Below are positions 1,764 to 17,418 of a stretch of DNA of 17,418 nt, in pieces (the first letter of the stretch is position 1; each line of letters begins with the position of its first letter). The stretch lies in IMG/VR virus record IMGVR_UViG_643692022_000009; one strand, 5' to 3'. The position numbers and the translations under genes were made by a program. This DNA comes from a virus (lineage: Duplodnaviria; Heunggongvirae; Uroviricota; Caudoviricetes). Below the pieces are notes generated by a model that searched no databases, had not been told where the DNA came from, and saw nothing but the letters and a program-made list of their open reading frames with translations.

Positions 1764-2219
1764 TTATGGTTGATATTGCCAACTGTTAACTAAAGCGTAC
1801 AAGTGGTTTGGGGAATAGCGCCAACTTTCTTTTAATTGCAGAAATTCGGCACAAAATTCGCTACAAAACAGGCGATCGCGCTGTTCTTTATTGCCGGTGA
1901 TAATTCCTAAGGCTCCACGCCAGTCGTATTTTTTGCCATCATGTTTACGGAAAAAAGCTTCTACATCCTGAAGGCTGACCTGGAGCGGCAGCATATCCCA
2001 CTTGTCTGGCGGTAAAGGCATTATCTTTCCACGAACGCCGCGATCGCGCAGAGAGGCGGAGTAACAAAGGTAACTCTTTTCTCCATGTGCTACGGCTAAT
2101 TCACAGTGGGAATAACTGCCGCGAGTGATTTTGCGTGTAAGCCAGTCAGCCAGTCTCGCAATAACCCGGTGCTCTGTTCGCCCTTTATAGCAAGCGAGCC
2201 AGACTGTAGTTTTACTCAT
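1764..2219 (-). CDS. Hypothetical 151-aa protein, translationally coupled to the tail-fibre assembly gene; possible permuted papain-like (LRAT / NlpC-P60-type) fold
   Basis: Its ATG overlaps the TGA of the upstream Tfa gene (ATGA, 2216-2219). Normal GC content. Contains 'YSHCELAVAHG' and a C-terminal 'FCSEFCAEF', reminiscent of the His...NCEHF arrangement of permuted NlpC/P60 enzymes. The fold assignment is from motif recall only. Confidence 0.6.
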   Translation of the reverse strand: MSKTTVWLACYKGRTEHRVIARLADWLTRKITRGSYSHCELAVAHGEKSYLCYSASLRDRGVRGKIMPLPPDKWDMLPLQVSLQDVEAFFRKHDGKKYDWRGALGIITGNKEQRDRLFCSEFCAEFLQLKESWRYSPNHLYALVNSWQYQP

Positions 2220-2923
2220 GGTTGCCAGCCTGTTGAATAATCGTAGTCGAGTACCGACTGAATATCGTCCAGAGCTTCCACCGCCGCGATATGGCGTTGG
2301 GCGTTGGCAAACAAGCGTATATCGTGATCCATTGTGACGGATTCAAACTGGGCAGCGATTTCGTTGGTTAACTCAGTCAGACCATTATTTTTAGTTTTCC
2401 ACATTAAACCTGGCGGAATTTTTTTCTCCGCTCCCATTTTTGTGAGTGAGAGTTGTTGGATGCGGCTGCTTGTATCACTGTGGAAGTAATTGTCGTTGAT
2501 GATGATGTAGTCGGTAGTGATGGAGTCGCGCAATGTTTTGATTTCGGCACATTTCGCCTGTTTAGCATCATCAATTGATGGCTGCCATTTTTCGCCATCC
2601 CAACGCTCAAAAGTACTGGTAGGGGAAATGATGGTGACAGTTTCAGGCAATTGACCCAATTTATTAATAATAATCTGGCTGCCATCAACTTTGTTATAAA
2701 CAGTTTGGCCTCGATGATCTTCAATAAGTTCCCATTTATTAATTGACCATATAGAAGTAAAACCTGCAATTTTTTGTGGTGGTGGTGTTAATGTGCAGTA
2801 ATTCGGTAGTCCAGTGTTTGGTGCTATATATACATTGGACTCACCAATAAATTCTTGTGTGTCTGGTGAAAAATTAAAAACAGATAAAATTTGTGCGTTA
2901 TCGGAAAAAGTAAAAGTATTCAT
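2216..2923 (-). CDS. Tail-fibre assembly protein (Tfa chaperone family), 235 aa
   Basis: N-terminal region ('[33 protein letters not shown]...[12 protein letters not shown]') matches the conserved N-domain of enterobacterial Tfa proteins. Its ATG overlaps the tail-fibre stop (ATGA, 2920-2923). The C-terminal half is divergent, as expected for a fibre-specific chaperone. Confidence 0.8.
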
Positions 2924-4500
2924 GCAAGCCTCACAATATAATTGAATGCAATGTTTTTAACAGTATTTTCTGTATTGCCAGTGTTATTGATGATAATTGA
3001 GTGATTATGTGTACCTAACACAATATTATGTGTATGACTTCCCAGTGCGATTGTATGTGCATGGGCGCCAATCGTAATACTATGATAATGACTACCAGCA
3101 GACTCAGTAGGTTCTCTGTAGTTCTCATCTGAATTGGGGCTGTTCCATAAAGACGGTCCATCTTTACCTTCTGCACCATCAGTTGGTATTCGGTGTGTAT
3201 GTTCTCCAGATGTGCTTGTATTTCTACTTCCATGATTAAATGAAGCTGTAGTTTTTGTTCCTAAGTCCGTAGAGGTAGATGTTATTGTCCCTAAATTGGT
3301 ACTAGAAATACTGCCCGTATGGTTATGTGATTTAACTCCATCCAGTTCAGTAGATAATATAGCGCGCCCACTGGATGGTTTTCCTTTAATTATCCATCCG
3401 CGCATATCAGGAATAACGCCAGATGGATATGCAATTGCCAGTTTGGGATAGGAGGTTTTATTAAATGTCTGACCAGTCATCAGAGCGTAGCCTGAAGGTA
3501 CAGAATCAGATGGCCAGGGTATAGGCATCCCTACAGGACAGCTTTCCGCAGCAATAGCCTTATCCATCGCTGCCTTAACCGCGTTCGGCGTTGCAGCTTC
3601 CGTCGTACTGGTGCTGTTGGTCGCATTATTAAGTTTCACGACCCCTTTTTGTGTCAGCGTACCGTCGGGGATACCTGTTATTTGCCCCCAGGCATGGGTA
3701 TGGCTGGACGGTGCCGCAGCAATAGCCTTGTCCATCGCTGCTTTAACAGCACTTGGCGTTGCAGCTTCCGTTGTACTGGTGCTATTTGTTGTGTTGTTAA
3801 GTTTAACGACTCCTTTCTGCGTCAGTGTACCATCAGGGATACCAGTAATCTGACTCCAGGCATGATTATGACTGGTGGCAGCTTTGCTATTTGCCAGGTC
3901 ATATGCCGTTTTTACCGCTTTTGGCGTGGCCGCTTTGGTTTCATCATCGCTATTAGTCGCATTACTCAGCTGCGTAAAACCTTTTTGTGTCAGCGTCGCA
4001 TCAGGATGATTTCGTGATTGCTGATGTGTTTTCAACGCGTCATCGACATATTCCCTGGTTGCCACAACGACTGAAGGGTCGATCAAAAGCGTCACCGCAT
4101 CTGCATTGGTGACTTCCATGACCGCGCGTATAACGATTTGCTTACTGGCCCCCGCAGGTAATCGTGGCTTATAGGTTTCAGGGATTTTTCCGATAGCGAC
4201 CAGCGTGCCGTCGGTATCCAGTAACCCAACTTCGCGTACATACCAGCCTCCGACTTGTTCGGGAATAATCGCTTCCGCGATAACCCAGGCCGGATTATCT
4301 GGCGCAATTTTTAACGTATTGAGCTGACCACGCCAGACCTCATGGACTACTTTAGTCTGACTTTCTGTCGGTTCGATATATTTACCATTACCGTCGCCAA
4401 CTACCATAGTTTGCAGACGGATCTGTTTTTGCTCCGTCAATGCAGAGGCAATTTTGGCTTTGCCTGCAGTAGTTAATATTGTAAAAAATTCACTTGCCAT
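2920..4500 (-). CDS. Tail fibre protein (P2 gpH / Mu S-like N-terminal anchor, central collar repeats, His-x-His C-terminal tip), 526 aa from the ATG at 4500
   Basis: From '[22 protein letters not shown]...VGDGNGK...HEVWRGQLN...[33 protein letters not shown]' the N-terminus closely parallels P2 gpH. GGAGGAATA lies just upstream of the ATG at 4498-4500, which overlaps the gpI stop (TAATG). The ORF track extends 42 codons further upstream to 4623, but that ATG lies inside gpI. The C-terminus carries HxH repeats. Confidence 0.85.
3548..4010. repeat. In-frame tandem coding repeats inside the tail-fibre gene: two near-identical 168-nt (56-aa) units plus a diverged third copy
   Basis: Units beginning 'gcagcaatagcct' at 3548 and 3716 (period 168 nt) encode 'HAW[S/G][44 protein letters not shown]'. 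A degenerate copy ('[37 protein letters not shown]') lies at about 3884-4010. These are the phage tail-fibre collar repeats. Confidence 0.85.
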
Positions 4501-5234
4501 TATTCCTCCGGATATACAGACATAATTTCGGTGCTCCAGTATCCTGTGCCGACCTTCATCGGTTGGGATTGTGTAAGGCGATCGGGTTGATAAGGTAGTA
4601 GTTGGATATATTCCTCCACACAATAACCCGTCGCTAAAAATATTCCTGATGACTGGCTGAGGCTTTCTGCAACAGGAGGCAATACTGTAATGACTTCCCC
4701 TCCTTGCATGGCGCTGCCAATAACTGGTATTGGGCTTCGATTAATAAGCCAAATAACAATGCTTTCCAGCTTTGAACGAACATTTTTATATTCATGAATT
4801 AATGTGATAAGTGCATTGAATTCATCTTCATTTAATCCTTTTTCCTCTAGTGTAATATTTACCTTAAAAAAATAAGCCCTTCCCCCATATTCAAACCATT
4901 CTGAAATAGTTCCGGGTAAGGAAAGTATTTCCAGCACCCGCCGTACCGCCCAAATTGTTCCTTTATATTTATGCAGTTCAATGGCTTGTTTAATTAACTC
5001 GCGCTTCTCCCGCTCATCGGTGGTAAATAACCAACCTTCCAGCCCCTGAACGTGAAATTGTTCTGCAAGGGCTGGTAATGCCGAAGCATCAACCAGGTCG
5101 ACCAGATAAACCATCAACGCCGTCAGATCGAGTTGGGCAAAACGCTCGGCGGCGATGTTTGCCAGAATCGAAAAACGCTCATCGCTGGCAAGCGGCGGCG
5201 GTGGCAGCAATTTATCCATCGCTGACTCCGGCAA
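4500..5234 (-). CDS. Baseplate / tail protein I (P2 gpI family)
   Basis: N-terminal '[13 protein letters not shown]' and overall pattern match gpI-family proteins; it sits between gpJ and the tail fibre as in P2 and R-pyocin clusters. The true start may be the internal Met (MDKLLPPP, 5219); both candidate starts overlap the gpJ 3' end. Confidence 0.8.
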
Positions 5235-6327
5235 TCGTGACGTCTATTGCAGTGCATTCCGCCCATTCATGCGCCTGCAAAATACGTTTTGTAGGCATAT
5301 TCAGCGCAACGTCATAGACGCCATCGACCTGTAACACTTTGATTATCTGGTTTGGCACAATGTCCTGCCCCAGATGTTTCTGCCGCTGTTGCGTCCAGAG
5401 GCTAATCGCTTTACGCGCCGCAGCCAGCGTTGTCTCCTGATCGGCGGTGGTAAACAGCGTTAGCTGAGCACGGATCTCATACGGCACTCGAAGAGCGCAT
5501 TTCGCACTCACTTTGTCGGTCAGCGGACGTTTTTTCTCCTTGCTAACCTCCTGTTCGATTTGCGCGAGCAGTTCTGTTCCCGGCAGTCCGTTCAGGGTTA
5601 GCGGGTAGATCTCCACGCAGCCTTCTGGCAATCCCTCGTCCGGCCCCAGTACTGCAACGTCAATAATCGACTGGCTAACAGAAAGCGTATGAAAGCGGTA
5701 TGCGCCATAGCTGCCCGCATTACTAAAGCTTTCTGGTGCCAGTTGGATACGCTGGCGCAATGCGTCATCGCTCTCCTCACCGCAGCCGCCCGTTGACGCA
5801 GTCAGGTTAGTTACGTTGATGTCATAATGACCCATCCTGTCGACCAGTGCGCTAATTTGTGCAGGCTGCCAGCCGTTGCCCTGTTCACCTGCTGCGAGGC
5901 TGGTGGCAGGAACGGCGATATGCAAACTCCTGGCCGGAAGCAGAACATCTTCATCGGTGGCGAACATCACGCTATCAGAGGCACTGGCCCGCGTCCCCTG
6001 GGGAATCAGGATATTGCTGGTATACGCACTGACGACCGAAAACTGCAACGTCGTTTTTGCAGGCTGCGCAGGCAAACGGTGAACGCCCACCAACTCCCCT
6101 AAATAATCCAGCATTGGCGCGCGGGAATACGCGACCAGGTTTTGTTTCGCCGCTTCCTGAATGGCGATGCGTACAAGGTTTTCACGATAGGCAAACAGGT
6201 CGATGAGCAACCGCTCAGCCTGTGCCGGATAGAGTTTTTTACCACTGGCATCTTCGTATTGCGCAATCATCTCACTGGTAATTTGCGCAGGATCGCGGTC
6301 AATAAAATTGGGTTCGGCTATCGCCAT
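5212..6327 (-). CDS. Baseplate assembly protein J (P2 gpJ / T4 gp6-like wedge), 371 aa
   Basis: Size and position (W-J-I order) with gpJ-like composition; start overlaps the gpW 3' end by 10 nt. Confidence 0.8.
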   Translation of the reverse strand: MAIAEPNFIDRDPAQITSEMIAQYEDASGKKLYPAQAERLLIDLFAYRENLVRIAIQEAAKQNLVAYSRAPMLDYLGELVGVHRLPAQPAKTTLQFSVVSAYTSNILIPQGTRASASDSVMFATDEDVLLPARSLHIAVPATSLAAGEQGNGWQPAQISALVDRMGHYDINVTNLTASTGGCGEESDDALRQRIQLAPESFSNAGSYGAYRFHTLSVSQSIIDVAVLGPDEGLPEGCVEIYPLTLNGLPGTELLAQIEQEVSKEKKRPLTDKVSAKCALRVPYEIRAQLTLFTTADQETTLAAARKAISLWTQQRQKHLGQDIVPNQIIKVLQVDGVYDVALNMPTKRILQAHEWAECTAIDVTIAGVSDG

Positions 6328-6677
6328 AACACCTCCGTTGAGTTGATAACGCCGTCAGCGGCGCGCCATTGCACACGTAACGTCAGATGTTCGCCGTCGA
6401 TTACTGGTGTCAGCTTCAGCAACCGACAGCGCGGTTCCCACTGGCGGATGGCTTCCACCGACTCCCGTACCACATGCGGGATTGCCCGCTCGATGGGGTA
6501 ATCGATGTAGTGCCACAAGTTGCTGCCAAACAGCGGTCTGTGGGGATCACTGCCGCGCGGTGTACGCAGAATGATGTGTATTGCCTGGTGAATATCATCC
6601 AGCCCGCAGACGTATTCTTCAGGCCGCTGCAAGGCCGGTTGCCAGTGCAGCGTTGAGGGTCGTGTTTTTGTGTTCAT
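6318..6677 (-). CDS. Baseplate wedge protein W (GPW / gp25 lysozyme-like family), 119 aa
   Basis: Size of about 120 aa immediately upstream of gpJ; sequence consistent with the GPW/gp25 family. Confidence 0.75.
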   Translation of the reverse strand: MNTKTRPSTLHWQPALQRPEEYVCGLDDIHQAIHIILRTPRGSDPHRPLFGSNLWHYIDYPIERAIPHVVRESVEAIRQWEPRCRLLKLTPVIDGEHLTLRVQWRAADGVINSTEVLWR

Positions 6678-6737
6678 GAGGGTATTTTCGCCCTGAACGG
6701 GCTGTGGCGATATTAAAGCGATTTAGAAAACTGATTG

Positions 6738-6770
6738 ATTAAAAAGAGAAAACCCGCCATCAGGCGGGTT
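6738..6770 (-). terminator. Strong intrinsic terminator between spike gene V and wedge gene W
   Basis: Minus-strand transcript reads AACCCGCC-UGAU-GGCGGGUU (perfect 8-bp GC-rich stem at plus 6751-6758 and 6763-6770) followed directly by UUCUCUUUUUAAUC. The hairpin starts 5 nt after the gpV stop (6776). Confidence 0.6.
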
Positions 6771-6775
6771 AAACG

Positions 6776-7477
6776 TCAGTGTGTATGGTGGTTGGAGTTG
6801 CCACCGCTGTCCTGCAATGCGCCGCTGGCCTGAACGTTGCCGATCACGTTGACATTGCCAGTTATCGTGGCGGCGTTACCGATGCCTCCACTTCCTGCCA
6901 TCCCGCCAAGCCAGGTGAGTTTTTTCATTACCGTGACGTTGCCAGTAAAGGTGCTCATGGGCGCATCTACCGTCACTGCTGCCGCTTTAACATCGACCTT
7001 AGTGGCGTCGATGCTGACATCGGTCGCTTTAACATCGACAGTATCGGAAGTCACGATGACCTGTTGGGCTTTAATCTCAACGTTGGGTGATGTCAGGCGG
7101 GTACTGTCGATAACCTCAATCACGATTTTCTCGATACCGCCGTTAATCGTCAGCTGGTGCGTGCTGCGGTCATATTCAAACGCTGCGCCATCAGAAAACT
7201 GGACGTAACGTTTATCGCGCGAGGCCACAGGCGCGGTGTCAACCGTAGAATAAACTGCGCCCAGCACCACGCCATCTTCACCGTTATTGTCCAGCAGAAC
7301 TTCCACTTGCTCGCCCATATCCGGTAGCCAGTAGTCTTTATTGTCCTGGGAATTGCGTTGAAGTACCGCAAGCCAGTTGCTCTTCAGATTGTCACACTCC
7401 GGGAGCGTGACCCGCACCCGAACGCTGGTTTCGTCAATATCGATGATAATCCCCGTTTGCCGGGTTACTCCTTTCAT
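6776..7477 (-). CDS. Baseplate spike / assembly protein V (P2 gpV family), 233 aa, with Gly-rich His-terminated C-terminus
   Basis: Position directly downstream of gpD and sequence character of gpV-family spikes; C-terminus '...GGMAGSGGIGNAATITGN...NSNHHTH' fits a metal-binding apex. AGGAGGAAATATG-type RBS upstream. Confidence 0.75.
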   Translation of the reverse strand: MKGVTRQTGIIIDIDETSVRVRVTLPECDNLKSNWLAVLQRNSQDNKDYWLPDMGEQVEVLLDNNGEDGVVLGAVYSTVDTAPVASRDKRYVQFSDGAAFEYDRSTHQLTINGGIEKIVIEVIDSTRLTSPNVEIKAQQVIVTSDTVDVKATDVSIDATKVDVKAAAVTVDAPMSTFTGNVTVMKKLTWLGGMAGSGGIGNAATITGNVNVIGNVQASGALQDSGGNSNHHTH

Positions 7478-7486
7478 ATTTCCTCC

Positions 7487-8527
7487 TTACTGGCTGGTCG
7501 CTGGCCCGCGCGACACGTCGATTTCAGTGGTATAGCCGCTGCGCACAAAACTGTGAGTAGATTTATCAATTAGCCATTGACCGGAAAGCACGCCAAAATC
7601 GGTTAGCTCGATTTTATTGCCCGCCGTCAGTTCCGGGCAGCCCATCATTGTGAGCGTTCCGGTTTGCTGATATTCGTTGTGGCTGTCGAGTGCAGCGTTG
7701 GCTTTTGCCTGTGCTGCGCCAACGTCCGTCGCCCGACTGTTCAGTTTTAGCGTGTCGGCACTGGTGCCGACTCCACGGGCAGACGGTTTTTGCTGGCTGT
7801 CGTGGGTGTAGATAACCAGTTCTTTTTTCTTACTATTTTGATGCTGTACGGTGGCGTTTTTGTAGATACGGTTAATGGTATCTTTGAAGGTGAAATGCGA
7901 AACGTCTTTGCGGTCGATCGTTTTTACCGGTGCCAGGCAGCGCAGCGTGGGTAAATGTGAAAAAATCAGCTCTTTTGTCGTCACTTTTACGGCATAACCA
8001 TATTCACTGGCCAGACGTTTGAGAAATCCGACATCGGTTTCACCATACTGCGTTACCCGGTCGATGGTGAGCGGCTCGATTTTGCCCACCAGTTTCAGAC
8101 CGTGCGTTTGGGCGATACGGCTGGCGATAGCCGAAAGCGTCGTTTCTTCAAAGCCCTGGCTGTTACGGGTGCGCAGCGCCTGATTGACGGAAGTGGCGAT
8201 GCCATCAATATTTACCGTGGAAGGTGGCGCTGAAATATCAATTTTATCAATAATATATTGACCACAATCGAGCAGTTTTTCCCCCTGATAACCCATATGC
8301 AGCGCCAGCGTATCGCCTTTGCCGGGATACCACTCTTTTATCCAGCGTCCATCGGTGTCATCCAGTGTAATCGCGATGGTATCCGACTCGTTTTTAATAC
8401 TGTCCTGGTAACTGATGCTGGTGACATAAGGCGTGATGTCATAAGTGATATCTTTATGCCCATACCAGAGGGTAAAAATGGGCGCGAGCGTGGCAAAGAC
8501 GCCGCCAGTTACGCTTATCTCAGCCAT
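7487..8527 (-). CDS. Tail protein D (P2 gpD late-control-D family baseplate hub), 346 aa
   Basis: Size and position (U-X-D order as in R-type pyocin and P2-like tails); gpD-like N-terminus. Confidence 0.8.
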   Translation of the reverse strand: MAEISVTGGVFATLAPIFTLWYGHKDITYDITPYVTSISYQDSIKNESDTIAITLDDTDGRWIKEWYPGKGDTLALHMGYQGEKLLDCGQYIIDKIDISAPPSTVNIDGIATSVNQALRTRNSQGFEETTLSAIASRIAQTHGLKLVGKIEPLTIDRVTQYGETDVGFLKRLASEYGYAVKVTTKELIFSHLPTLRCLAPVKTIDRKDVSHFTFKDTINRIYKNATVQHQNSKKKELVIYTHDSQQKPSARGVGTSADTLKLNSRATDVGAAQAKANAALDSHNEYQQTGTLTMMGCPELTAGNKIELTDFGVLSGQWLIDKSTHSFVRSGYTTEIDVSRGPATSQ

Positions 8528-8727
8528 GGTGGGAGCTCCGATACGGTTTTGTTGACGGAAATGACCGGAATGATGAGCTGAATACCGGAAGGTAGTACCG
8601 GGTAAATGGCGACATGTGGATTGGCGGCGATAATGCGTTCATAAGCCAGCGCATCGCCATAGTAATGCCATGCCAGATTATCCCAGCGTTCGCCGTCGGT
8701 GGTGATATGTTCAAGGTATCGCATCAC
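8515..8727 (-). CDS. Tail protein X (P2 gpX family, LysM-like), 70 aa
   Basis: A 70-aa protein with 'DGERWDNLAWHYYGD...IIAANPHVAIYPVLPSGIQLIIPVI' parallels gpX ('GDTLD...RYYG...AANP...LP.G..L.IP'). Start overlaps the gpU-like stop (ATGA). Confidence 0.75.
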   Translation of the reverse strand: MMRYLEHITTDGERWDNLAWHYYGDALAYERIIAANPHVAIYPVLPSGIQLIIPVISVNKTVSELPPWLR

Positions 8728-9677: not shown

Positions 9678-12052
9678 CAGGCATACCCCCGGCGCTGCTG
9701 CTGCGCCATTACATCGTTAATCATTCTTTCCAGTTCGCGTTTACTCATCGTCAACACGTTCTGAATCTCTTTAGTGGTGTTTTGTCCGTTACCCTGCACG
9801 GTAATTTGTGGCGAAAAATTCACCTGAACTTTTCCTGAGGAACGGGAAGGTAGCGTCGCCGCTTTGGTTACGGATTTACCAGGTAAAGAGGCCGATGCTT
9901 GTTTGGCGGCTGTATTTTTTGCCGCTGATGCCGATGGTAGCGTTGTCGTTTTACTGGATGGCGCGAGTTGTTTCCCCACTGGAGGCGTTAAAATCGCACC
10001 GGCAACGCCTGGAACAACGGTCGTGGAGGAGACGGATGCGGTATTACTCGTGCTTGTAACAGCCGTAGCCGATCCTTCTGTACTAATACCCATCGTGGTT
10101 TTTAGCCAGTCCGGTAAGGCGTTTTTGATCTGGTCAATAATGCCTTTCAGAGCGGGGAAGGCATTTATTATGCCGTCAACCAGACTGCCCAGAAGATTGC
10201 TGCCGAACTCGCTAAAACTTGCAGGCATCTCGACACCAAACCAATTCATCACACTGGAAAAGGCGCTATAGAACAAAGCCAGCGGCGACCAGTCGAGAAT
10301 CAACCGGCAAATCCCTGCAATACCGCCGTCAAAGGCCGTGGTGATACGTTGCCAGATGGTCGAAAAGAACCTGGAGATAGGCTCCCAGTTGCGATAAATC
10401 AGATAAGCAGCACCCGCAATTGCGGTGATGACCAGGCCAATGGGATTCATCAATAAAACCCTACCCAACCAGAAGACGGTCTGACCTACCTGTTTCAGTG
10501 CGCCAATCAGGCCACGACCAAGCAGTTGCATTAGCCATTTTGCGCCGCCACCCAATGACTTAACCGCTGATAGCATCTTACTTGCCCCGCCTGTGAGCGC
10601 CAGACTTGCCTTGACTTTCAGGAAGATATCGACCAGACGAATAAACGGCGAGGTGATGAGGTTCGCGCCCAGCTTTAAAACATTCAGCGCACCGTTAAAC
10701 AGCCAAATCGCCCCGACGATTTTCGCGATGTTTTGCACCAGTGTCGGGTGCTCACGTAGCCAGGTGCTGAACTGACGAATAACCGGCGTAAGGCTTTGTG
10801 CCAGCTCGCCAATCAGCGGCATTAATTGCAAGCCAATGCTGAGCCATAAATCATTTAACGCCAGCTGTAACGCTTTAGTCTGTTCAATGGGCGAGGCCAT
10901 TTGCGCAGAAAAGTCGGCATCAATCAGATTCTTGCTGGTGGCTTGCATGGCAGAGGTTTTTAACTGGCGATATTCCTCCATATTCGCCAGCATAGGTGCC
11001 AGGAATTCCACCGTTTGCGCATCGCCGAACATTTCGCCCAGATTAAATTGCGTCACCATCGATTGCAGCGCATTGCTGCGAGCAGATAAATCTTCAATCT
11101 GCATAGTTCGTTTGAAGGTGTCGAGGATCGCCGGATTCATCTTCTCAAGCTGCATTTGTACGATATGAGTCATGGCTTCGCTAACACCCATACCGTTTTG
11201 CTGATGTTCAAGCAGAGAGCCTTGCAGATCGACGCCCTGGCTGGCGAACCAGTTATCGGTCTTTTTCGAAAAGGTGGTTTGCAGAAAGTGGTCGAAATTC
11301 TCCGCCGCCGCACTGGCGCTGGCTCCGTTTTTCATGGCGATCTGCATGGCGGCAGTCAGTTCAGCCATACCTTCCAGACCCTGAGCGCCGGTTTTACCTG
11401 CAAATTTGTCTATCCACAGCGTTTGCTCGGCAACGGCAGGCCCACCGCTTTTGCTAATGCCGTACATCATGTTTTGCGCGACGTGGAAATTTTCTGGCGC
11501 AATATTCAGTCGATCATGGGTTGCGAGCGCGGCATTCGCCCATGTTTCAGCACTTTCGCGCGTGGCGGTGGCAGCTTTGGCGATCTCCGGCATATAACGG
11601 TTGAGATCCTGTATCGACGACAAATTGCCTTCGATCAGCGTTTGGGCTGCGTTCTGTAAGGTGGTCTGATGCTGGTTAAAATCCATGCTCCAGTCGCGCA
11701 GATTAAGGCTGAGCGTCTCGCGAGTTGTATCATTCATCCCACCTTTGGTCGCCATATTGACCATGTTGTCCTGGAACTCATACGGCAACTTCCAGTCGGG
11801 GGCTTCAACATTGAATACTTTGCTAAATTGCCCGGCAAATGTGTGGGTTTTCTCCATCAGATTAGCGCGGCTGCGGCTATTTTCCTCCAGGCGGAGAGCG
11901 GAATCGGCAAGCCGCTGCGTTAGTTTGATAACTGTCGCTTGCTGAGTAGAGAGAGCTAACAATGTTCTGGCGTTGAGTGAGCCGTAACGGGCTATTGCCT
12001 GCGTCAACGTCTCATTACGCGCCTGAAGCTGGGTAATAATATCGTTGGCCAA
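9677..12052 (-). CDS. Tail tape measure protein, 791 aa
   Basis: Long alpha-helical protein with central hydrophobic segments and an S/T/A-rich low-complexity C-terminal region, located between the chaperone gene and gpU as in all P2/Mu-type tails. Confidence 0.85.
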   Translation of the reverse strand: MANDIITQLQARNETLTQAIARYGSLNARTLLALSTQQATVIKLTQRLADSALRLEENSRSRANLMEKTHTFAGQFSKVFNVEAPDWKLPYEFQDNMVNMATKGGMNDTTRETLSLNLRDWSMDFNQHQTTLQNAAQTLIEGNLSSIQDLNRYMPEIAKAATATRESAETWANAALATHDRLNIAPENFHVAQNMMYGISKSGGPAVAEQTLWIDKFAGKTGAQGLEGMAELTAAMQIAMKNGASASAAAENFDHFLQTTFSKKTDNWFASQGVDLQGSLLEHQQNGMGVSEAMTHIVQMQLEKMNPAILDTFKRTMQIEDLSARSNALQSMVTQFNLGEMFGDAQTVEFLAPMLANMEEYRQLKTSAMQATSKNLIDADFSAQMASPIEQTKALQLALNDLWLSIGLQLMPLIGELAQSLTPVIRQFSTWLREHPTLVQNIAKIVGAIWLFNGALNVLKLGANLITSPFIRLVDIFLKVKASLALTGGASKMLSAVKSLGGGAKWLMQLLGRGLIGALKQVGQTVFWLGRVLLMNPIGLVITAIAGAAYLIYRNWEPISRFFSTIWQRITTAFDGGIAGICRLILDWSPLALFYSAFSSVMNWFGVEMPASFSEFGSNLLGSLVDGIINAFPALKGIIDQIKNALPDWLKTTMGISTEGSATAVTSTSNTASVSSTTVVPGVAGAILTPPVGKQLAPSSKTTTLPSASAAKNTAAKQASASLPGKSVTKAATLPSRSSGKVQVNFSPQITVQGNGQNTTKEIQNVLTMSKRELERMINDVMAQQQRRGYA

Positions 12053-12141
12053 AATTGTTTCTCTTATAGATTGGTGATGGCCCGCTGGTTAGTTTTCTGA
12101 AAAATGGGCTGGGAAGAAATAAACCTGGCGGGCTTTGAAGA

Positions 12142-12166
12142 ACTCGCAGACATCAGGTCTGCGAGT
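12142..12166. other. Perfect 10-bp inverted repeat (ACTCGCAGAC / GTCTGCGAGT, 5-nt loop) in the chaperone to tape-measure gap
   Basis: Read directly from sequence. On the minus strand the hairpin spans the stop codon of an open +1-frame extension of the chaperone gene and is followed by UUCUUCAAAG (a poor U-tract). Possible attenuator or frameshift-associated structure. Confidence 0.4.
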
Positions 12167-12240
12167 CATATTCGATCTTTATTTGAGCGCTGGCTTCATC
12201 CAGCCAGTTGCTAAAGTCATCTATGGTGAGCGCGTCTATC

Positions 12241-12558
12241 TCACTGGGCGGAAAGCGAAACCATCTCGCCAGTAACGCCATCGCTTGCCATAACAGTGGC
12301 GGATTCTGTAGCCACGCTAAGCATGGATTGAAATCGTTTCTGCAATGCCTGGTAATCCAGCAAATCCATTTCAGCTAAATCTTCTGGCACCAGTCCGGTC
12401 ATTGCCGCCATTAGCGGTTCATCCCATTCTTCTGGTTTTTCGCTGATCCGGCGCGCGTTGCGCATATCTTTTACTTTCAGGCGACGTAATTGCAGCGTGT
12501 CGATATTATTTCCTGCTGCCGACGTAAATGGAAACTGCAAGATATAATGTTCTTTCAT
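12241..12558 (-). CDS. Tail assembly chaperone (P2 gpE-like), 105 aa
   Basis: Small acidic protein in the conserved slot between the tube and tape-measure genes; sequence pattern parallels gpE. A 189-nt gap follows before the tape-measure ATG, where an E-prime-type extension would be expected. Confidence 0.65.
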   Translation of the reverse strand: MKEHYILQFPFTSAAGNNIDTLQLRRLKVKDMRNARRISEKPEEWDEPLMAAMTGLVPEDLAEMDLLDYQALQKRFQSMLSVATESATVMASDGVTGEMVSLSAQ

Positions 12559-12608
12559 TTTGTGTCCTTATTTATTTTGCAAAGTTCGGGGCCGTAGCCC
12601 CGAATAAC

Positions 12609-13133
12609 TTAGCCACCGATGTTATTGCGATAGGTACTTAATTGATCCACACCATTAACCCGGAAAATATTGGCCATATAATCAAGTTCAAGCAGCGTTT
12701 CACCATCAACTACTTGTTTAATATAAGTGCAACCAAAGGCGCTGCTGAATTCCGGGTTTTCATTCTGTTTAAATGTGCCCAGTGGATTCTTTTTAAACAT
12801 CACGGTTAAATGTGTCACTAACGCTAATTGATTCGCTTTCCCCTGGGAGTTATAGCAATCAATACTGGAGCGGCACTGTAATGCCACCGCCTGCCACGGG
12901 TTTGCCGTTTTACGCATGACGTCCTGATAAAAGGAGTTCCATTTAATTTCGCCCTCCAGTTTATCGAAACCTGCCGGGAGTTCGATTTTGCCGACCATAC
13001 CCAGTGCCTTATGCTCTTGCATAATTAAACTGACATCCGGCAATTTAATTTCGGTTGCACGACCTAAAAGGTTATTACCATCGAGATAAATATTGGCGTT
13101 GGTAATACGGTTAATTTGAATTTTTCCAGCCAT
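12609..13133 (-). CDS. Major tail tube protein (P2 gpFII family), 174 aa
   Basis: Size and position immediately downstream of the sheath gene (start overlaps the sheath stop by 1 nt); tube-family sequence character. Confidence 0.85.
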   Translation of the reverse strand: MAGKIQINRITNANIYLDGNNLLGRATEIKLPDVSLIMQEHKALGMVGKIELPAGFDKLEGEIKWNSFYQDVMRKTANPWQAVALQCRSSIDCYNSQGKANQLALVTHLTVMFKKNPLGTFKQNENPEFSSAFGCTYIKQVVDGETLLELDYMANIFRVNGVDQLSTYRNNIGG

Positions 13134-14563
13134 TAGCTATTGCTCTCCAGAGAGACTAAATATTCAGAAGTAATTTCAGTTTCAAACGTCAGACGTTCCA
13201 GCGGCGGTGGCGGGGTGAATTTATAGCTCAGCAATAAATGCCCGGCGCTGAGTTCGGTCGGTGAATTTCGCGCCGGATCGTACCAGCACTCAAAGCCAAG
13301 CAGTGCGCCGTCGGCAATCAGCTTACGGCCCCAGGTATTTACCGATTCGGTCAGGGCATCAATCAGCGCCTGATTAATCGGCATATCAATATACTGCTGA
13401 CTGAAATAACGGATTGACTCATTAATTACATCGCCTGTCCGGCGGGCGTTTTCAAAGTTACGCATATGGGTCACGGTAGGCCATGCCGCTGTGCGGTTGC
13501 CCCACAAGCGCAGACCAGAGCCGTAACTATTGAAAATAGTGGTAATGCCGTTTTCGTTGAGCTGATTCACTTCGCTTTGAGGATCATCAATCATTGCGGA
13601 AAGCGAACGTTCAATACCGGTAATACCCTGAATTTCCTGGTTTGAGTTGCTCCACCAGAAACCTTTTTCGAGGTCTACTTTGGCACGTAGCCCGGCAGCG
13701 CGCGAAGAGAGCGGTTCGAGAACTTCCTGGTTAGTGATGCCATCGTAAACTTTGACGTGTGGGTAACATAAACGCGCACGATCAGAGCTGGTGTTGAAGT
13801 TGATAGCCCCTTGCGAACCGCGTCCTGCCAATACCTGCTGGAATGTCGTCCCAATCGGGGCATCAATGTAGGTAATCGCACCAAGTTTTTCCGCTTGTGC
13901 AATCAGCTCGGTAGTTACTGATTTTTGCGTACAGAACACGGGAGCAAGCAGGATTTTGGCGTAGAAACCATACAGGTTATAGGTGTCCTGTAGCAGTTTC
14001 ATCCCCGTGCGATCGCCTGCGGTATTAACGGCACCGATAATATCGGCTGCGGTGACCTTTGTAGGGTCGCACCAGGAATAATAGGCGCAAACTTTCGCAC
14101 CAGGAGGAATGTCGGCTCCTGTACGGGTAATTATGCCTGTTTGTTCATCTACGCTAAATGCTGCGGTGTTATAGGTTGATGAATTTGATGAAGAGGGCTT
14201 TAGAACCACGTTACGCACATTGCGGTGAGCGAGTTTCGCCTGGTTGTTAGCGTCAAAAGTGATACTCTCATTGCTGATGTTGGAGCCATGTTTTGCCGGA
14301 TCCAGCACGTTAATCACCACCACCGTACCGGCACCGTGGTCATAAATCGCCTTCAGTGCCTGCGGGATCGTAAAGTTAGCCTGAGTCGAACCAAACTGCG
14401 CAGCATCGCTTTCAGAAAGGCATAATGTTGGTTTATTTACCGGACCACAGGGGGCCGTACCGATTAAAGCGATGACGGCGGATTTTACCGCTTTAACCGG
14501 ACGCGGGCCGGTTTCAATTTCAATGGTTTCTACACCGTGCAGATAATTAGCTGCCATGTACAA
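13133..14563 (-). CDS. Contractile tail sheath protein (P2 gpFI / Mu L family), 476 aa
   Basis: N-terminus 'YLHGVETIEIETGPRPVKAVKSAVIALIGTAP' is the conserved sheath start (compare P2 FI 'YHHGVQVLEINEGTR...'). Size is typical of sheath proteins. Confidence 0.9.
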   Translation of the reverse strand: MYMAANYLHGVETIEIETGPRPVKAVKSAVIALIGTAPCGPVNKPTLCLSESDAAQFGSTQANFTIPQALKAIYDHGAGTVVVINVLDPAKHGSNISNESITFDANNQAKLAHRNVRNVVLKPSSSNSSTYNTAAFSVDEQTGIITRTGADIPPGAKVCAYYSWCDPTKVTAADIIGAVNTAGDRTGMKLLQDTYNLYGFYAKILLAPVFCTQKSVTTELIAQAEKLGAITYIDAPIGTTFQQVLAGRGSQGAINFNTSSDRARLCYPHVKVYDGITNQEVLEPLSSRAAGLRAKVDLEKGFWWSNSNQEIQGITGIERSLSAMIDDPQSEVNQLNENGITTIFNSYGSGLRLWGNRTAAWPTVTHMRNFENARRTGDVINESIRYFSQQYIDMPINQALIDALTESVNTWGRKLIADGALLGFECWYDPARNSPTELSAGHLLLSYKFTPPPPLERLTFETEITSEYLVSLESNS

Positions 14564-14744
14564 TTTCCTCTCCGTTATTTTGTTCTTCCTGAGTGATGAC
14601 AGGTGTCAGATGATTGCGGGCAATCATGGTCATGACCCACTCGTTGTCTTCTGGCAGATCAATTTCACTGTTCGGCCACAATAAGATTTCTTGTCCGTCG
14701 GCAAGGGTGACGCCGCTTGCCGGGCCGTTGTAGATGTATTTCAT
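14547..14744 (-). CDS. Small conserved phage protein (65 aa), possibly Mu gp38-like (DUF2635-type)
   Basis: Tightly packed between the upstream ORF (ATGA overlap at 14741-14744) and the sheath gene (17-nt overlap), matching the small ORF that precedes the sheath gene in Mu-like tail modules. The family assignment is from memory and not verified. Confidence 0.35.
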   Translation of the reverse strand: MKYIYNGPASGVTLADGQEILLWPNSEIDLPEDNEWVMTMIARNHLTPVITQEEQNNGEEIVHGS

Positions 14745-15196
14745 TCAGTTTCCTCGTAATTAACTTCAGTAAGCAGGGTAAGGTCCGTGCTTTCCCGTTT
14801 CGCGATAAACAGCGAGCTGGTCGCCATTTCCAGGATGTAGCGGCAGAAACCACCGCTCTCGCCTGCATTGATTTCTTTTTCAAGCCAAAGAAGACGCTCG
14901 CAATCAGGAAGCTGGATCCCCCCCAGTGCGCTGCGTATGCGGTCCAGTGCGTTTAACGCGTCACAATTTTTGCCAACAATAACGGTGGCAGTTAAACGGA
15001 GCGTTTGCTGTTGCACGAGAGCATCACTGCTTTCAGACATGGCAAATAGAGAACCGCTATAATTAATAATCACTGTAACTTGCTGCGTCTGCGGAATATA
15101 TTTATGGGCATCAACCGATGAAATAGATACATCCATTTCGGGATTCTGTTCACATAATCTGGTCACAACAGAATTCATTACTGATAAAATTTCCAT
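14741..15196 (-). CDS. Hypothetical tail-module protein, 151 aa; candidate tail completion / terminator-type protein (Mu gp37-like by position)
   Basis: Uninterrupted ORF with AAGGGA 8 nt upstream of the ATG, co-oriented with and immediately upstream of the sheath operon. No diagnostic motif recognised. Confidence 0.35.
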   Translation of the reverse strand: MEILSVMNSVVTRLCEQNPEMDVSISSVDAHKYIPQTQQVTVIINYSGSLFAMSESSDALVQQQTLRLTATVIVGKNCDALNALDRIRSALGGIQLPDCERLLWLEKEINAGESGGFCRYILEMATSSLFIAKRESTDLTLLTEVNYEETE

Positions 15197-15313
15197 ATAG
15201 GGTATCCCTTAATTATCGCTGATTCGTTAACGCTCACTTCGTTATCGTTGAAATGTATTCTGACGTAGTGAAGGTGAAGGATCTTTTAATCTGCTTTAGA
15301 GAAAAAATTGAAT

Positions 15314-15628
15314 TTAATAGCTACCGCGTTGTAATAGCTCTATTTTGCTATATAAGGCATCCAGCTTTGCTTCTAATACTGCCTGGCCACGAAGATAATC
15401 TTCTCTGCGGACATAATGCAGCGGAAGCTCGGCACGAAATTCGAGAAATTCTCTTTCCAGTTTCGACCAGTTTGTTTCTGATTCCCGGCGCGCGTTTTCC
15501 AGAGATTCAAAACGCTCATTAAGTCTTTTTTCAATTTGCGCTAACAGCAATTTTCCGGCAGCAAACATTAATCCAACGAAGGAAAGCATAAGGGAGATCA
15601 CTTCCCAAAAATCGATACTGAGTTTCAT
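15314..15628 (-). CDS. Membrane-anchored coiled-coil protein, 104 aa; candidate i-spanin or other lysis accessory protein
   Basis: N-terminal hydrophobic segment ('VISLMLSFVGLMFAAGKLLL') followed by a charged helical region with heptad character; located 12 nt downstream of the lytic transglycosylase gene. No o-spanin lipoprotein partner was identified. Confidence 0.45.
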   Translation of the reverse strand: MKLSIDFWEVISLMLSFVGLMFAAGKLLLAQIEKRLNERFESLENARRESETNWSKLEREFLEFRAELPLHYVRREDYLRGQAVLEAKLDALYSKIELLQRGSY

Positions 15629-15640
15629 CGGCCCCTCTGA

Positions 15641-16246
15641 TTAGTGAAGACAGCTTGCCTGTCCCCAGAGTAAATAGCGGGCGGCGTGTTGATAGAGAAT
15701 CATCTTTGGATAGCGACGATTTTCTCGCCAGTTCGTGGCGCTGCGCCCGGCGTTGACTTGCTCAACATGACCAAACCAGAGAGTGGCATCTAGCCCTTTG
15801 GATACAGCCAGTTTTTTATCCCGATTAACCCATCCCTGACCGCCGTTATAGGCGCTTAGGGTAAACGCCATACGCTGACAATCATTTTTCGCAGAGATGT
15901 TTTTCCACAAATACTGGTCATATTGCACCAGCGCGCGAATCGCCCAGGTTGGGTTATACGGTTTGTTTTCACGCAACTGCGGATACAACTGGCTTACCCA
16001 TGTCGCTGTAGCAGGCATGAATTGCGCCATACCTTGTGCGCCAACGGGGGAACGTACCATTGGCTGCCAGGCGGACTCCTGGTGTAATTGCCCGGCAAAG
16101 TCGGCCACTGGGGCATTCAGTCCCCAGACTTCTCGAGCGGTACGAATTAGTTCGTTTCGCCATGCCAGAGAGGCTCTCGGCGGTTCAGAGGCGTTGAGTG
16201 GGAAAAGAACGAAAATAATCATAGACGCGATATATTTCAGCCACAT
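15641..16246 (-). CDS. SLT-domain lytic transglycosylase (endolysin) with N-terminal signal or SAR-like hydrophobic segment, 201 aa from the ATG at 16246
   Basis: Contains the family-1 lytic transglycosylase motif with catalytic Glu: 'HQESAWQPMVRSPVGAQGMAQFMPATA'. N-terminus 'MWLKYIASMIIFVLFPLNASEPP'. The ORF track extends to 16345, but the ATG at 16244-16246 lies 2 nt after the upstream gene stop and begins the hydrophobic segment. Confidence 0.8.
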   Translation of the reverse strand: MWLKYIASMIIFVLFPLNASEPPRASLAWRNELIRTAREVWGLNAPVADFAGQLHQESAWQPMVRSPVGAQGMAQFMPATATWVSQLYPQLRENKPYNPTWAIRALVQYDQYLWKNISAKNDCQRMAFTLSAYNGGQGWVNRDKKLAVSKGLDATLWFGHVEQVNAGRSATNWRENRRYPKMILYQHAARYLLWGQASCLH

Positions 16247-16248
16247 CA

Positions 16249-16536
16249 CTATAGCCCTAACGCGACGGAAAGGCAGACGGCAGCAACGATGATAGCCCGG
16301 CGAATCATTGCCGCCGCGCAGCAACGCGGTTCCTTCCAGGGGCAAAAAGAGTCAGGCCGTGCCCAGGGGAACAAACTGCGATCGAGCCAGTATCCCAGCA
16401 CCGCGGAAAGCGAAACCAGGCTTAGTTTATAAATGACGACCGGGATTTGTGCTGAAGAGGTCCAGCCGATCACGACAAACAGCGCGACGGAAGCGACCAG
16501 CCAGCCGGAAAGCCGGGGAAATGTGATTTTTTTCAT
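16249..16536 (-). CDS. Small membrane protein with three hydrophobic segments, 95 aa; holin candidate
   Basis: GGAGAT lies 5 nt upstream of the ATG. Hydrophobic stretches 'WLVASVALFVVIGW', 'IPVVIYKLSLVSLSAVLGYWL' and 'AIIVAAVCLSVALGL'; stop lies 2 nt before the endolysin ATG. It lacks the charged C-terminal tail typical of holins, so confidence is moderate. Confidence 0.5.
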   Translation of the reverse strand: MKKITFPRLSGWLVASVALFVVIGWTSSAQIPVVIYKLSLVSLSAVLGYWLDRSLFPWARPDSFCPWKEPRCCAAAMIRRAIIVAAVCLSVALGL

Positions 16537-16832
16537 ACGATATCTCCTGATAAATGAGCGTTTAGTGTCGTCAGAACCCGCCAGTGAAGAATGAAAAAAG
16601 CTTTAATAAATAAGTTTAAAAAATAGATTCTCTATAAATGAACATGCCCGCTAATAAATCCACCCGTCAATAAAAGAGCAAAAGGTGACCTGGCGAACAA
16701 GTGCATCATTATGCAGGGGAAAGATGATGGTGGATCGTAGGAATATTCGATAGTTATTTGATTTTTAAAGTTTGTTTAAGAAAGTCAGCGACTGTGAGGG
16801 AAACGATCTTTTTACACTACAAGTAAAAATAA

Positions 16833-16852
16833 TACTGTATGTGTATACAGTA
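16833..16852. promoter_or_regulatory. LexA (SOS) box, TACTGTATGTGTATACAGTA
   Basis: Matches the E. coli LexA consensus TACTGTATATATATACAGTA (CTGT-N8-ACAG) at 18 of 20 positions, differing only at two central, weakly conserved positions. It lies in the divergent AT-rich intergenic region between the Mor-like gene and the lysis/tail operon. Confidence 0.65.
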
Positions 16853-16873
16853 TCGTGTAAAATGATACACCTG

Positions 16874-16904
16874 TTGACAAGAAACATAACGCAAACAATA
16901 TATC
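16874..16904 (+). promoter_or_regulatory. Candidate sigma70 promoter reading toward the Mor-like gene (-35 TTGACA, -10 AATATA / TATATC at 17-19 nt spacing)
   Basis: Consensus TTGACA at 16874-16879, 22 nt downstream of the LexA box, with A/T-rich -10 candidates at 16897-16904. A second dyad (GTGTA-N6-TACAC, 16856-16871) lies between the LexA box and the -35. Confidence 0.35.
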
Positions 16905-17073
16905 TATTTCATGAATTTATGGCGTTCATTAATATTAAAAATTTATATTTTTGTTAATTGTTTATTTGTTTGTTGAATGTATTGAGTAGCAGTAATGACA
17001 ACTGCTTAGCGTATATCCGTGGTTTTACACGCATCGGGTCTTATTCAGGATGCAAGATATATGGAGATGAAAA

Positions 17074-17418
17074 ATGATACGAAAATCAAAAGAGATGGCC
17101 CGGACACCGGAGATCATTAACGACCTGGCTTTTCATGCATCGCAAGTTCTGATTGAAAGCATCAATCTCGACAGTTCATCGGCAGAAAATGTGGGCTTTG
17201 CCATTGCCGACCGAATGATGCGTAACTGGGGCGGACAAAGCATTTATTTCCCTAAGGGGATCTCCGGACGAGCATCGGAGCGTGACTACCAAATCTATAG
17301 CGAGTGCGATGGGCGCAACTACGCCGAATTAGCGAAGAAATATAATCTGACGCTGCAATGGATTTATAAGATTGTGAAGCGGGTGCACGCAGAAAAACAG
17401 CAGCAACGTCGGATGTAA
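17074..17418 (+). CDS. Mor/C-family transcriptional activator (phage Mu middle/late activator family), 114 aa
   Basis: C-terminal region 'WGGQSIYFPKGISGRASERDYQIYSECDGRNYAELAKKYNLTLQWIYKIVKR' parallels Mu Mor ('GGGQVYIPRGQALDSLIRDLRIWNDFNGRNVSELTTRYGVTFNTVYKAIRR'). Complete ORF ending in TAA at the window edge. Confidence 0.8.
   Translation: MIRKSKEMARTPEIINDLAFHASQVLIESINLDSSSAENVGFAIADRMMRNWGGQSIYFPKGISGRASERDYQIYSECDGRNYAELAKKYNLTLQWIYKIVKRVHAEKQQQRRM

Follow-up and report, generated by a model that had tools for sequence, protein, structure and literature searches.

The stretch of DNA considered here, a 17,418-nucleotide record assigned to the Caudoviricetes (IMGVR_UViG_643692022_000009; hereafter the window), is 100% identical to Escherichia fergusonii ATCC 35469 (CU928158.2) and carries a contractile-tail gene cluster that is treated below as a candidate R-type tailocin locus. 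Nineteen consecutive minus-strand genes extend across positions 1764-16536, or 20 if the frameshift frame E′ is counted, and the sole plus-strand gene opposite them, mor (17074-17418), diverges from these late genes. In order of transcription, the cluster encodes a holin, an SLT endolysin, a 104-residue gp25-like protein, the Gp37 tail terminator, a 65-residue protein, the sheath, the tube, chaperone E and the tape measure, followed by U, X, D, V, W, J, I, the fibre, the fibre chaperone and p151. A preliminary description of the window, read from the sequence alone, had proposed about 19 consecutive genes for a complete contractile tail plus a lysis cassette. Its open reading frames (ORFs) all exist, and searches of the window ORFs against Pfam, PHROGs and NCBIfam, on which the gene identities below rest, confirmed the tail, lysis and Mor families. 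The structural set of the tail is complete, with Pfam and PHROG assignments for its genes and a one-to-one match with gp37-gp52 of phage BcepMu.

Tail genes and fibre module

The tail genes, all on the minus strand, begin with a terminator or cap protein of the Gp37 family (14741-15196; 151 residues), which matches PF09646 and the PDB entry 2GJV (E 2e-52). A structural model of low confidence (predicted local distance difference test score, pLDDT, of 53.5) also retrieved 2GJV as the top Foldseek match, followed almost exclusively by terminators and caps, including T5 p142, the Mu terminator, lambda gpU, the monocin cap and the collars of pyocin R2 and diffocin. The “portal protein” label attached to this family in phrog_209 and in the RefSeq record of BcepMu is an annotation error, given the length of only 151 residues, the position of the gene, the presence of the real BcepMu portal at gp29, and the 2GJV and fold matches; such a mislabel could mislead screens for head genes. 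The adjoining gene (14547-14744; phrog_895) encodes the conserved 65-residue protein, which is 46% identical to BcepMu gp38. Its homologues are present in all relatives, always between terminator and sheath, and its ratio of nonsynonymous to synonymous substitution rates (dN/dS) is 0.08. These two small ORFs ahead of the sheath, which had been placed where Mu-like phages have their last head-proximal genes, are in fact parts of the tail, namely the Gp37 terminator and the gp38 homologue.

The contractile sheath (13133-14557; 474 residues) matches PF04984 (Phage_sheath_1) and PF17482 (1C), and is 71% identical to BcepMu gp39, 74% to the sheaths of PhiKM and KP12, and 76% to that of carotovoricin. 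It is followed by the tube (12609-13133; PF04985, E 4e-56) and a gpE-like tail assembly chaperone (12241-12558; PF10109, Phage_TAC_7, E 2e-19). The E′ extension (12153-12263), in the -1 frame relative to E, was read directly as WFRFPPSEIDALTIDDFSNWLDEASAQIKIEYDSQT and is open up to the tape-measure gene. This frame has a weak match to PF06528 (GpE; E 0.007, below the family cutoff), and a 42-residue gene is annotated at its position in other genomes; no canonical slippery heptamer was seen at the E/E′ junction. The tape measure (9677-12052; 791 residues; PF10145, PhageMin_Tail) precedes a gpU-like protein of 317 residues with a C-terminal coiled-coil extension (8724-9677; PF06995, E 6e-34; phrog_788 over the full length), a gpX-like tail protein (8515-8724; PF05489, E 2e-23), a gpD-like baseplate hub (7487-8527; PF05954) and a gpV-like spike (6776-7477; PF04717), the C-terminus of which reads ...NHHTH. 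The baseplate is completed by the gpW/gp25 wedge (6318-6677; PF04965; 96% identical to the Salmonella protein), the gpJ wedge (5212-6327; PF04865, E 8e-63) and gpI (4500-5219; PF09684, E 6e-33). The gene order given in the preliminary description holds as stated, while its reading as a permutation of the P2 or R-pyocin order does not, the order being simply that of BcepMu.

The fibre gene (2920-4500) encodes 526 residues from MASEFF..., with matches to PF12571, PF03406 (three times) and PF07484. The protein is built from a conserved N-terminal collar-fibre domain, three fibre repeats, a Collar domain and a His-rich HxH tip. Its assembly chaperone, Tfa (2216-2923), matches PF02413 and PF14301 (DUF4376/Caudo_TAP), as well as phrog_105 (tail fiber assembly) and phrog_1807 (tail fiber protein). 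The fibre operon ends with p151 (1764-2219; 151 residues; phrog_1128), which is 77% identical to Salmonella STM4198 and has no match in Pfam, NCBIfam, PDB or PADLOC. A single-sequence AlphaFold2 model of p151 was unusable (pLDDT 43), and a permuted papain-like fold considered for this protein was a guess without support.

Beyond the fibre operon lies a glycosyltransferase-like moron (822-1550, minus strand; 242 residues), which matches phrog_1962 (E 9e-99), is low in guanine and cytosine (GC, 39-43%) and has no Pfam or NCBIfam match. Together with its AT-rich spacer (822-1763, GC about 39%) it is present in E. fergusonii and missing from the E. coli copies. It may serve in modification of the lipopolysaccharide (LPS) or in self-protection, both of which are speculative. 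The fibre C-terminus, itself the most diverged region with respect to E. coli and Salmonella, forms one low-GC segment with Tfa, p151 and the glycosyltransferase, and this segment is likewise the most diverged part of the locus; such divergence would be expected of a specificity module. A DNA search with the fibre tip and Tfa gave no match.

In E. coli LWY24, the RefSeq annotation (PGAP) lists the fibre (16963-18666 of the LWY24 stretch) as two pseudogene fragments, yet the ORF is uninterrupted and equal in length to that of the window. A general loss of the fibre in E. coli, once considered, was dropped because of this uninterrupted ORF.

Absence of head genes and BcepMu-like ancestry

The cluster is truly headless. 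Capsid, portal, terminase, protease, integrase, transposase and replication families have no match among the window ORFs, and in the source genome the neighbouring 7-10 kb or so on each side are free of head, packaging, integrase and transposase genes. The early, head, packaging and Rz/Rz1 proteins of BcepMu and PhiKM gave no significant tblastn match in the window and about 10 kb per side; with all annotated early, lysis, head and packaging proteins as queries, and with the Rz-like and gp26-like proteins of carotovoricin added, only Mor, holin, SLT, gp25, gp37 and gp38 were matched. Head, packaging and integration genes were also not found beside the copies in E. coli, Salmonella, Superficieibacter and Phytobacter. 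The claim that capsid, portal, terminase, protease, integrase and replication genes are lacking from the window therefore stands by both family searches and tblastn, and the flanks that had been named as the place to look for head, portal and terminase genes, beyond Mor or in a contiguous prophage, hold none over about 7-10 kb each way.

Instead, the locus is bounded by core genes. On the left in ATCC 35469 lie a gene for an RlaP nucleotidyltransferase (window 1-792), a slipin gene, yjbD, rluF and a sorbose phosphotransferase operon, and on the right a Zeta_toxin-family gene, lysC, pgi and yjbEFGH; the arrangement of the right flank is identical in 8 other E. fergusonii genomes. A megablast search of the whole window against phage records matched only a Salmonella contig and fragments.

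Judged by protein homology and gene order, the cluster is the late region of a BcepMu-like (Bcepmuvirus) transposable phage, in the form of a headless derivative. The nearest complete phages are the Burkholderia phage BcepMu and two enterobacterial Bcepmuvirus phages, the Escherichia phage PhiKM and KP12 (sheath identity 71-74%). Of the BcepMu genes, gp01 (Mor), gp21 (holin), gp22 (SLT), gp25 and gp37-gp52 are retained in the same order. Missing are gp02-gp20 (GemA, transposase, MuB, repressor and others), gp23/24 (the spanins Rz and Rz1) and gp26-gp36 (terminase, portal, F, G, protease, capsid and adaptor), the last block having been removed cleanly between the gp25 homologue and gp37. This gap with respect to BcepMu and PhiKM, along with the core-gene flanks, agrees with the earlier suggestion that the head module is cleanly absent and not merely off-window. 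The transposase/MuB early region and the Mu-type head and packaging genes that a complete Bcepmuvirus carries are without a match here.

Other headless BcepMu-like derivatives came to light in a scan of one genome per species. Those of Brenneria, Lonsdalea and Paraburkholderia have a transposase, MuB and Mor, and in Chromobacterium and Rivihabitans mor lies directly beside the gp37 terminator gene with no lysis genes between. Since there are several such derivatives, head loss is recurrent in the BcepMu-like group, and these loci may be further independent tailocin domestications.

Several accessory genes occupy the margins of the locus. Between yjbD and the tail cluster lie the RlaP-family nucleotidyltransferase gene (PF10127, E 9e-96) and the slipin gene (Band_7; 11556-12683 of the left-flank stretch), neither of which has a PADLOC match. 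The RlaP gene alone is found in about 30% of complete E. coli genomes, where it is far commoner than the tail cluster. In E. fergusonii, the Zeta_toxin-family gene between mor and lysC (6039-6974 of the right-flank stretch) encodes a P-loop kinase of 309-311 residues; neither Salmonella nor the E. coli strains LWY24 and IAI39 have the gene at this place. A glycosyltransferase gene is inserted beside duplicated yjbD/rluF fragments in ATCC 35469, in CP042945 and in one further E. fergusonii stretch. CP042945 also bears an integrase, some 7 kb past rluF, together with early genes of lambdoid type (17554-20729 of the stretch); this lambdoid prophage is a separate, strain-specific element outside the tail cluster.

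Lysis cassette, activator and control elements

The lysis genes are transcribed first. The holin (16249-16536, minus strand; 95 residues) belongs to PF13272 (Holin_2-3, E 2e-27) and phrog_1528 and is 62% identical to BcepMu gp21. The endolysin (15641-16246, minus strand; 201 residues) is a lytic transglycosylase (PF01464, SLT; phrog_669) 53% identical to BcepMu gp22, and its hydrophobic N-terminus, read directly as MWLKYIASMIIFVLFPLNA, is of the signal or signal-anchor-release type. The last gene of the cassette (15314-15628, minus strand) encodes 104 residues with a membrane segment and a coiled coil, as had been described, and can now be assigned as the homologue of BcepMu gp25 (47% identity, E 1e-35; dN/dS 0.07 against Salmonella). 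A role as a spanin was considered for this protein and rejected, there being no similarity to Rz; nor was a lipobox or lipoprotein ORF found inside or after its gene. The cluster thus has its own lysis cassette of holin and SLT endolysin, without a spanin and with neither Rz nor Rz1.

The activator (17074-17418, plus strand; 114 residues) is a Mor-family transcription factor (PF08765, E 4e-38; PHROG late transcriptional activator), 49% identical to BcepMu gp01, which upholds its initial naming as a divergent Mor/C-type protein. Against Salmonella its dN is 0.048, with a dS that could not be estimated. Among the predicted genes, Mor is the only phage regulator kept. In Pectobacterium, carotovoricin is under the control of RdgB, a Mor-like regulator to which the Mor of the window may be linked; a homologue search gave close relatives only.

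The spacer between mor and holin measures 537 bp and contains a candidate LexA box of the SOS response, TACTGTATGTGTATACAGTA (16833-16852), the sole exact match to CTGT-N8-ACAG in the window. A single match to this pattern is not in itself statistically remarkable, and when one mismatch is allowed the window has 5 matches where 4.6 would be expected, which is no enrichment. The box is credible because of the near-consensus 20-mer, 18 of whose positions agree with the E. coli consensus, its location and its conservation across taxa. Neither the two halves of the box nor the adjoining GTGTAAAATG vary among E. coli, Salmonella (ACTGTATATATATACAGTA), Phytobacter and two Superficieibacter species, in contrast to the diverged flanks; the remainder of the spacer is only about 60% conserved. 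No box resembling the consensus was found in the headless BcepMu-like loci of Brenneria, Lonsdalea, Chromobacterium and Paraburkholderia; Brenneria alni has a single CTGT-N8-ACAG match with no further likeness to the consensus. Since these other headless lineages are without it, the box appears to be specific to the lysC-linked clade. A sigma-70-like promoter, TTTACA and TACAGT separated by 16 nt (16834-16861, minus strand; promoter scan 9/12), overlaps the box and points towards the holin, and the same bases on the Mor-sense strand offer a TAAAAT -10 element just past the box.

In four E. coli genomes (IAI39, CE10, N32 and AR_0013), the insertion sequence (IS) ISEc53, an ISL3-family element carrying a ClbS/DfsB-family gene, lies inside the LexA box. 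Its site is equivalent to window positions 16839-16842 (16415/18305 in the IAI39 stretch), and the structural genes are all annotated as intact. The insertion may silence or uncouple a lethal SOS-induced locus.

A second kind of element is the pattern TYTAAA-N5-TTAWWA, which occurs exactly three times in the window, each time just upstream of an operon start, against 0.02 occurrences expected for a pattern that was derived post hoc from these same three sites. The first copy, TTTAAACTTATTTATTA (16604-16620, minus strand), lies upstream of the holin and has the same place in Salmonella, Superficieibacter and Phytobacter. The second, TCTAAAGCAGATTAAAA (15284-15300, minus strand), begins no operon of its own in the phage sense but lies 88 nt ahead of the terminator gene, within the deletion scar of 117 bp, and the complete phage PhiKM has the identical 17-mer ahead of its head protease gene. 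It is kept upstream of gp37 in Salmonella, Phytobacter and Superficieibacter (with mismatches), and in the aligned headless loci of carotovoricin, Brenneria and Lonsdalea, so that in the aligned headless loci the head-operon copy of the phage motif sits directly before the terminator gene. The third, TCTAAATCGCTTTAATA (6711-6727, minus strand), precedes W, as it does in E. coli, carotovoricin and PhiKM. Recurrence at orthologous sites provides an independent test of the motif, and it does recur (Salmonella, E. coli, Phytobacter, Superficieibacter, carotovoricin and PhiKM). The three copies are therefore treated here as putative Mor-dependent late promoters.

Three hairpins on the minus strand were read directly. 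A GC-rich one, CGGGGC-TACG-GCCCCG (12587-12602), lies between the tube and chaperone genes and is a possible attenuator. Terminator-like hairpins follow V (6741-6770; AACCCGCC-TGAT-GGCGGGTT, with the T-run TTCTCTTTTT) and the last gene at the left end of the tail cluster (1734-1758; GCCGGGC-TTCAA-GCCCGGC TTT). Their positions fit three predicted transcription units.

Conservation, function and related systems

The same layout of mor opposite holin, SLT, gp25, gp37, gp38 and sheath is found beside lysC-pgi in E. coli, Salmonella, two Superficieibacter species and Phytobacter massiliensis, and close homologues of the sheath were found as well in E. albertii, Citrobacter, Enterobacter, Dryocola and Lelliottia. 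In the comparison with Salmonella, dN/dS is 0.05-0.27 in all 18 genes with a computable ratio, the dS of Mor and p151 not being estimable. Cluster dS values of 0.6-2.8 are comparable to those of the flanking core genes (lysC 1.7, pgi 0.7, yjbH 1.3), although dS is saturated and any estimate of age from it is rough. Because dN/dS is low over divergence as deep as that of neighbouring core genes, the pattern indicates a long-maintained function and not decay. Within E. fergusonii, all covered cluster genes are full-length in 6 of 8 genomes for the half from Mor to D, and in 5 of 5 for the half from U to p151.

The gene set, its headlessness, the BcepMu-like ancestry, the selection acting on it and the conserved control elements, each of them evident at the level of sequence, are probably best accounted for by a domesticated, headless derivative of a BcepMu-like phage that has been kept beside lysC as an SOS-inducible R-type tailocin locus. 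We infer the bacteriocin function from the sequence and from analogy with carotovoricin and the R-pyocins. In the proposed mechanism, DNA damage would lead to cleavage of LexA and derepression of the promoter or promoters that overlap the box between mor and holin. Mor would then activate three late units, each preceded by TYTAAA-N5-TTAWWA: holin-endolysin-gp25 as the first, terminator-gp38-sheath-tube-chaperone-tape measure-U-X-D-V as the second, and W-J-I-fibre-Tfa-p151 as the third. The encoded proteins, a full set as far as the genes are concerned, would assemble into a Gp37-capped contractile tail with baseplate, spike and fibres. The holin and secreted SLT endolysin would lyse the producer without spanins and so release the particles. 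By analogy with carotovoricin and the R-pyocins, the variable fibre tip would bind a surface receptor, probably LPS, on related strains, and the bound particles would contract and kill by depolarising the membrane.

A number of observations weigh against this account. The spanins Rz and Rz1 are missing (tblastn, window and about 10 kb of each flank), so that lysis may be inefficient, and no immunity mechanism was identified. The putative LexA-controlled promoter may point either way, the late motif has the post hoc derivation mentioned above, and saturation of dS blurs the age of the cluster. Only 197 of 5426 complete E. coli genomes (3.6%) carry it; an initial count of 1631 genomes was discarded as driven by the RlaP gene at 1-792, and the figure of 197 comes from a search with the cluster only. 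ISEc53 interrupts the LexA box of IAI39-type E. coli, and 2 of 8 E. fergusonii genomes have lesions in the terminator/gp38/sheath region (equivalent to window 14131-15029), one a deletion and the other a split sheath, which shows strain-level inactivation. Finally, neither a report of particles, lysis or killing by this locus nor a tailocin named for it was found in the searchable literature.

Some of these same observations invite the view that the cluster is an inert remnant, a functionless leftover of a decaying BcepMu-like prophage that persists only until it is deleted. The Salmonella orthologue is indeed catalogued as the defective element Def4, the spanins are lost, an IS interrupts the control region of some E. 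coli copies, the sheath is damaged in those two E. fergusonii genomes, and few complete E. coli genomes (3.6%) have the cluster at all. A remnant would nevertheless not be expected to show strong purifying selection on all 18 computable genes at a divergence as deep as that of flanking core genes. Every tail gene is intact in the window, the LexA box and regulatory motifs are conserved across genera, and the blocks that were deleted are exactly those that a tailocin does not need. Simple decay is thus rather unlikely, although it may apply to individual strains.

It is somewhat more improbable that the module, while domesticated, serves a purpose other than the killing of bacteria, such as SOS-triggered explosive lysis that releases toxins, DNA or vesicles, or injection aimed at eukaryotes. 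The presumed SOS-controlled region is followed at once by the lysis cassette, which thus comes first, the bacteria concerned are gut- and host-associated, and in Pseudomonas the pyocin lysis genes drive explosive lysis. Yet the fibre, baseplate and sheath are constrained as strongly as the lysis genes, the fibre has a phage-type LPS-binding architecture, and the nearest functional relative is a bacteriocin. Furthermore, neither Pfam nor PHROGs revealed a gene for a payload or toxin, an Afp15-type ATPase, or a cap or tape measure of the type found in extracellular contractile injection systems (eCIS).

The retained and conserved terminator, as the head-docking surface, raises the prospect of a tail donor, in which free tails would be joined to capsids encoded elsewhere, by a tail-less satellite or another prophage, so that particles capable of infection or transduction would form again. 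Enterobacteriaceae harbour satellites that encode a capsid only and hijack tails. The cognate adaptor genes between head and tail (gp36, gp31/G) have been deleted, no partner element was identified, and proven tailocins (pyocin R2, diffocin, monocin) likewise keep the terminator as a cap, all of which makes this arrangement very improbable. An ordinary complete prophage with its head and integration modules off-window is refuted by the core-gene flanks in the source genome, E. coli, Salmonella, Superficieibacter and Phytobacter and by the lack of head or early matches in tblastn, and retains next to no probability.

The preferred reading, that of an SOS-inducible tailocin locus, can be extended to a broader and more tentative one. 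In this extension, the lysC-linked cluster would be an old, largely vertical tailocin of the Enterobacteriaceae, spanning Escherichia, Salmonella, Superficieibacter, Phytobacter and probably Citrobacter and Enterobacter, domesticated apart from carotovoricin and with the LexA box and Mor replacing the phage repressor circuit; Def4 would be a working weapon, and the LPS-modifying genes in or beside the cluster (gtrABC of Salmonella and the glycosyltransferase gene at 822-1550) would provide self-protection against the producer's own particles. So comprehensive a picture is possible but, on present evidence, doubtful.

R-type tailocins, including the carotovoricin design, and the Salmonella orthologue as a remnant were known already. 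What is new is that the E. fergusonii locus is recognised as a member of the carotovoricin-like kind that is intact and under selection, that its BcepMu ancestry is traced with the exact limits of the deletions, and that a LexA box, late motifs and the synteny at lysC are conserved across genera. The searchable literature yielded no native R-type tailocin from Escherichia or Salmonella that has been characterised by experiment; for Salmonella, phages are engineered into tailocins instead (PMC10670071). If functional, the locus would endow major gut and pathogen genera with a natural means of killing that is triggered by the SOS response and specific to strains, and the status of Salmonella Def4 would shift from junk to weapon. 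With its three operons and one activator in about 15 kb, it would also offer a compact chassis that could be retargeted by exchanging fibres. As an evolutionary case, it is a clean example of a transposable phage pared down to its tail, in which the head-operon late promoter appears fused to the terminator gene and the repressor circuit replaced by a host LexA site.

Among known systems, the “ST131 tailocin” of the literature is a different, P2-like element. The hallmarks of eCIS of the Afp/PVC type (Afp15-type AAA+ ATPase, Afp16-type cap and payload toxins) were not detected in the ORFs by Pfam, PHROGs or NCBIfam, and all parts of the cluster carry family assignments of the phage P2/Mu type. 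The R2-pyocin of P. aeruginosa follows the same design, a headless contractile tail with its own lysis genes and with induction by DNA damage through one activator, as is proposed for the present locus, and its collar protein, by structural modelling, falls in the same fold class as Gp37. It differs in its P2-like ancestry and gene order, in its regulation through PrtR/PrtN in place of the LexA/Mor circuit proposed here, and in that the pyocin cluster has spanins.

The orthologue in Salmonella Typhimurium, Def4 (STM4198-STM4219; also annotated as BTP6), lies between yjbD and lysC and has the same gene order, Mor, LexA box and late motifs, with protein identities of 53-96%. Between its V and W genes lies an inserted operon for O-antigen glucosylation, gtrABC, and it is without the E. 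fergusonii glycosyltransferase gene at 822-1550. In the literature, Def4 figures only as a defective prophage remnant and not as a tailocin.

The closest functional counterpart is carotovoricin Er, a Pectobacterium R-type tailocin (Yamada et al. 2006, as cited in PMC13195805 and PMC11974492). The locus compared here is that of Pectobacterium brasiliense, which was fetched through its sheath protein (76% identical) and lies directly after a TolC-family gene, in keeping with the tolC_2 boundary of carotovoricin (PMC13195805). The two clusters are likewise headless and collinear from holin to fibre. The proteins from holin to I are homologous, with identities of 26-76% and with sheath and tube both at 76%, and in both clusters the late-promoter-like motif has been fused ahead of Gp37 and of W. 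The initial classification as a carotovoricin or R-pyocin type accordingly holds for the carotovoricin kind, while the R-pyocin and P2 wording was loose, the ancestry being BcepMu-like. The differences are equally clear. Carotovoricin occupies the tolC_2-ybiB site and not yjbD-lysC, it keeps Rz-like (224 residues) and gp26-like genes, neither of which was matched in the window by tblastn, and it has no adjacent mor or LexA box, both of which are present here. In about half of its loci it also has the Ein invertase for fibre switching, a family not found here by Pfam. In a neighbour-joining tree of the sheath, a distance tree without bootstrap or other support values, carotovoricin groups with complete enterobacterial BcepMu-like phages and the lysC-linked elements form a clade of their own. 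Because that clade stands apart from carotovoricin, the tree suggests that the two tailocin-like loci were domesticated separately.

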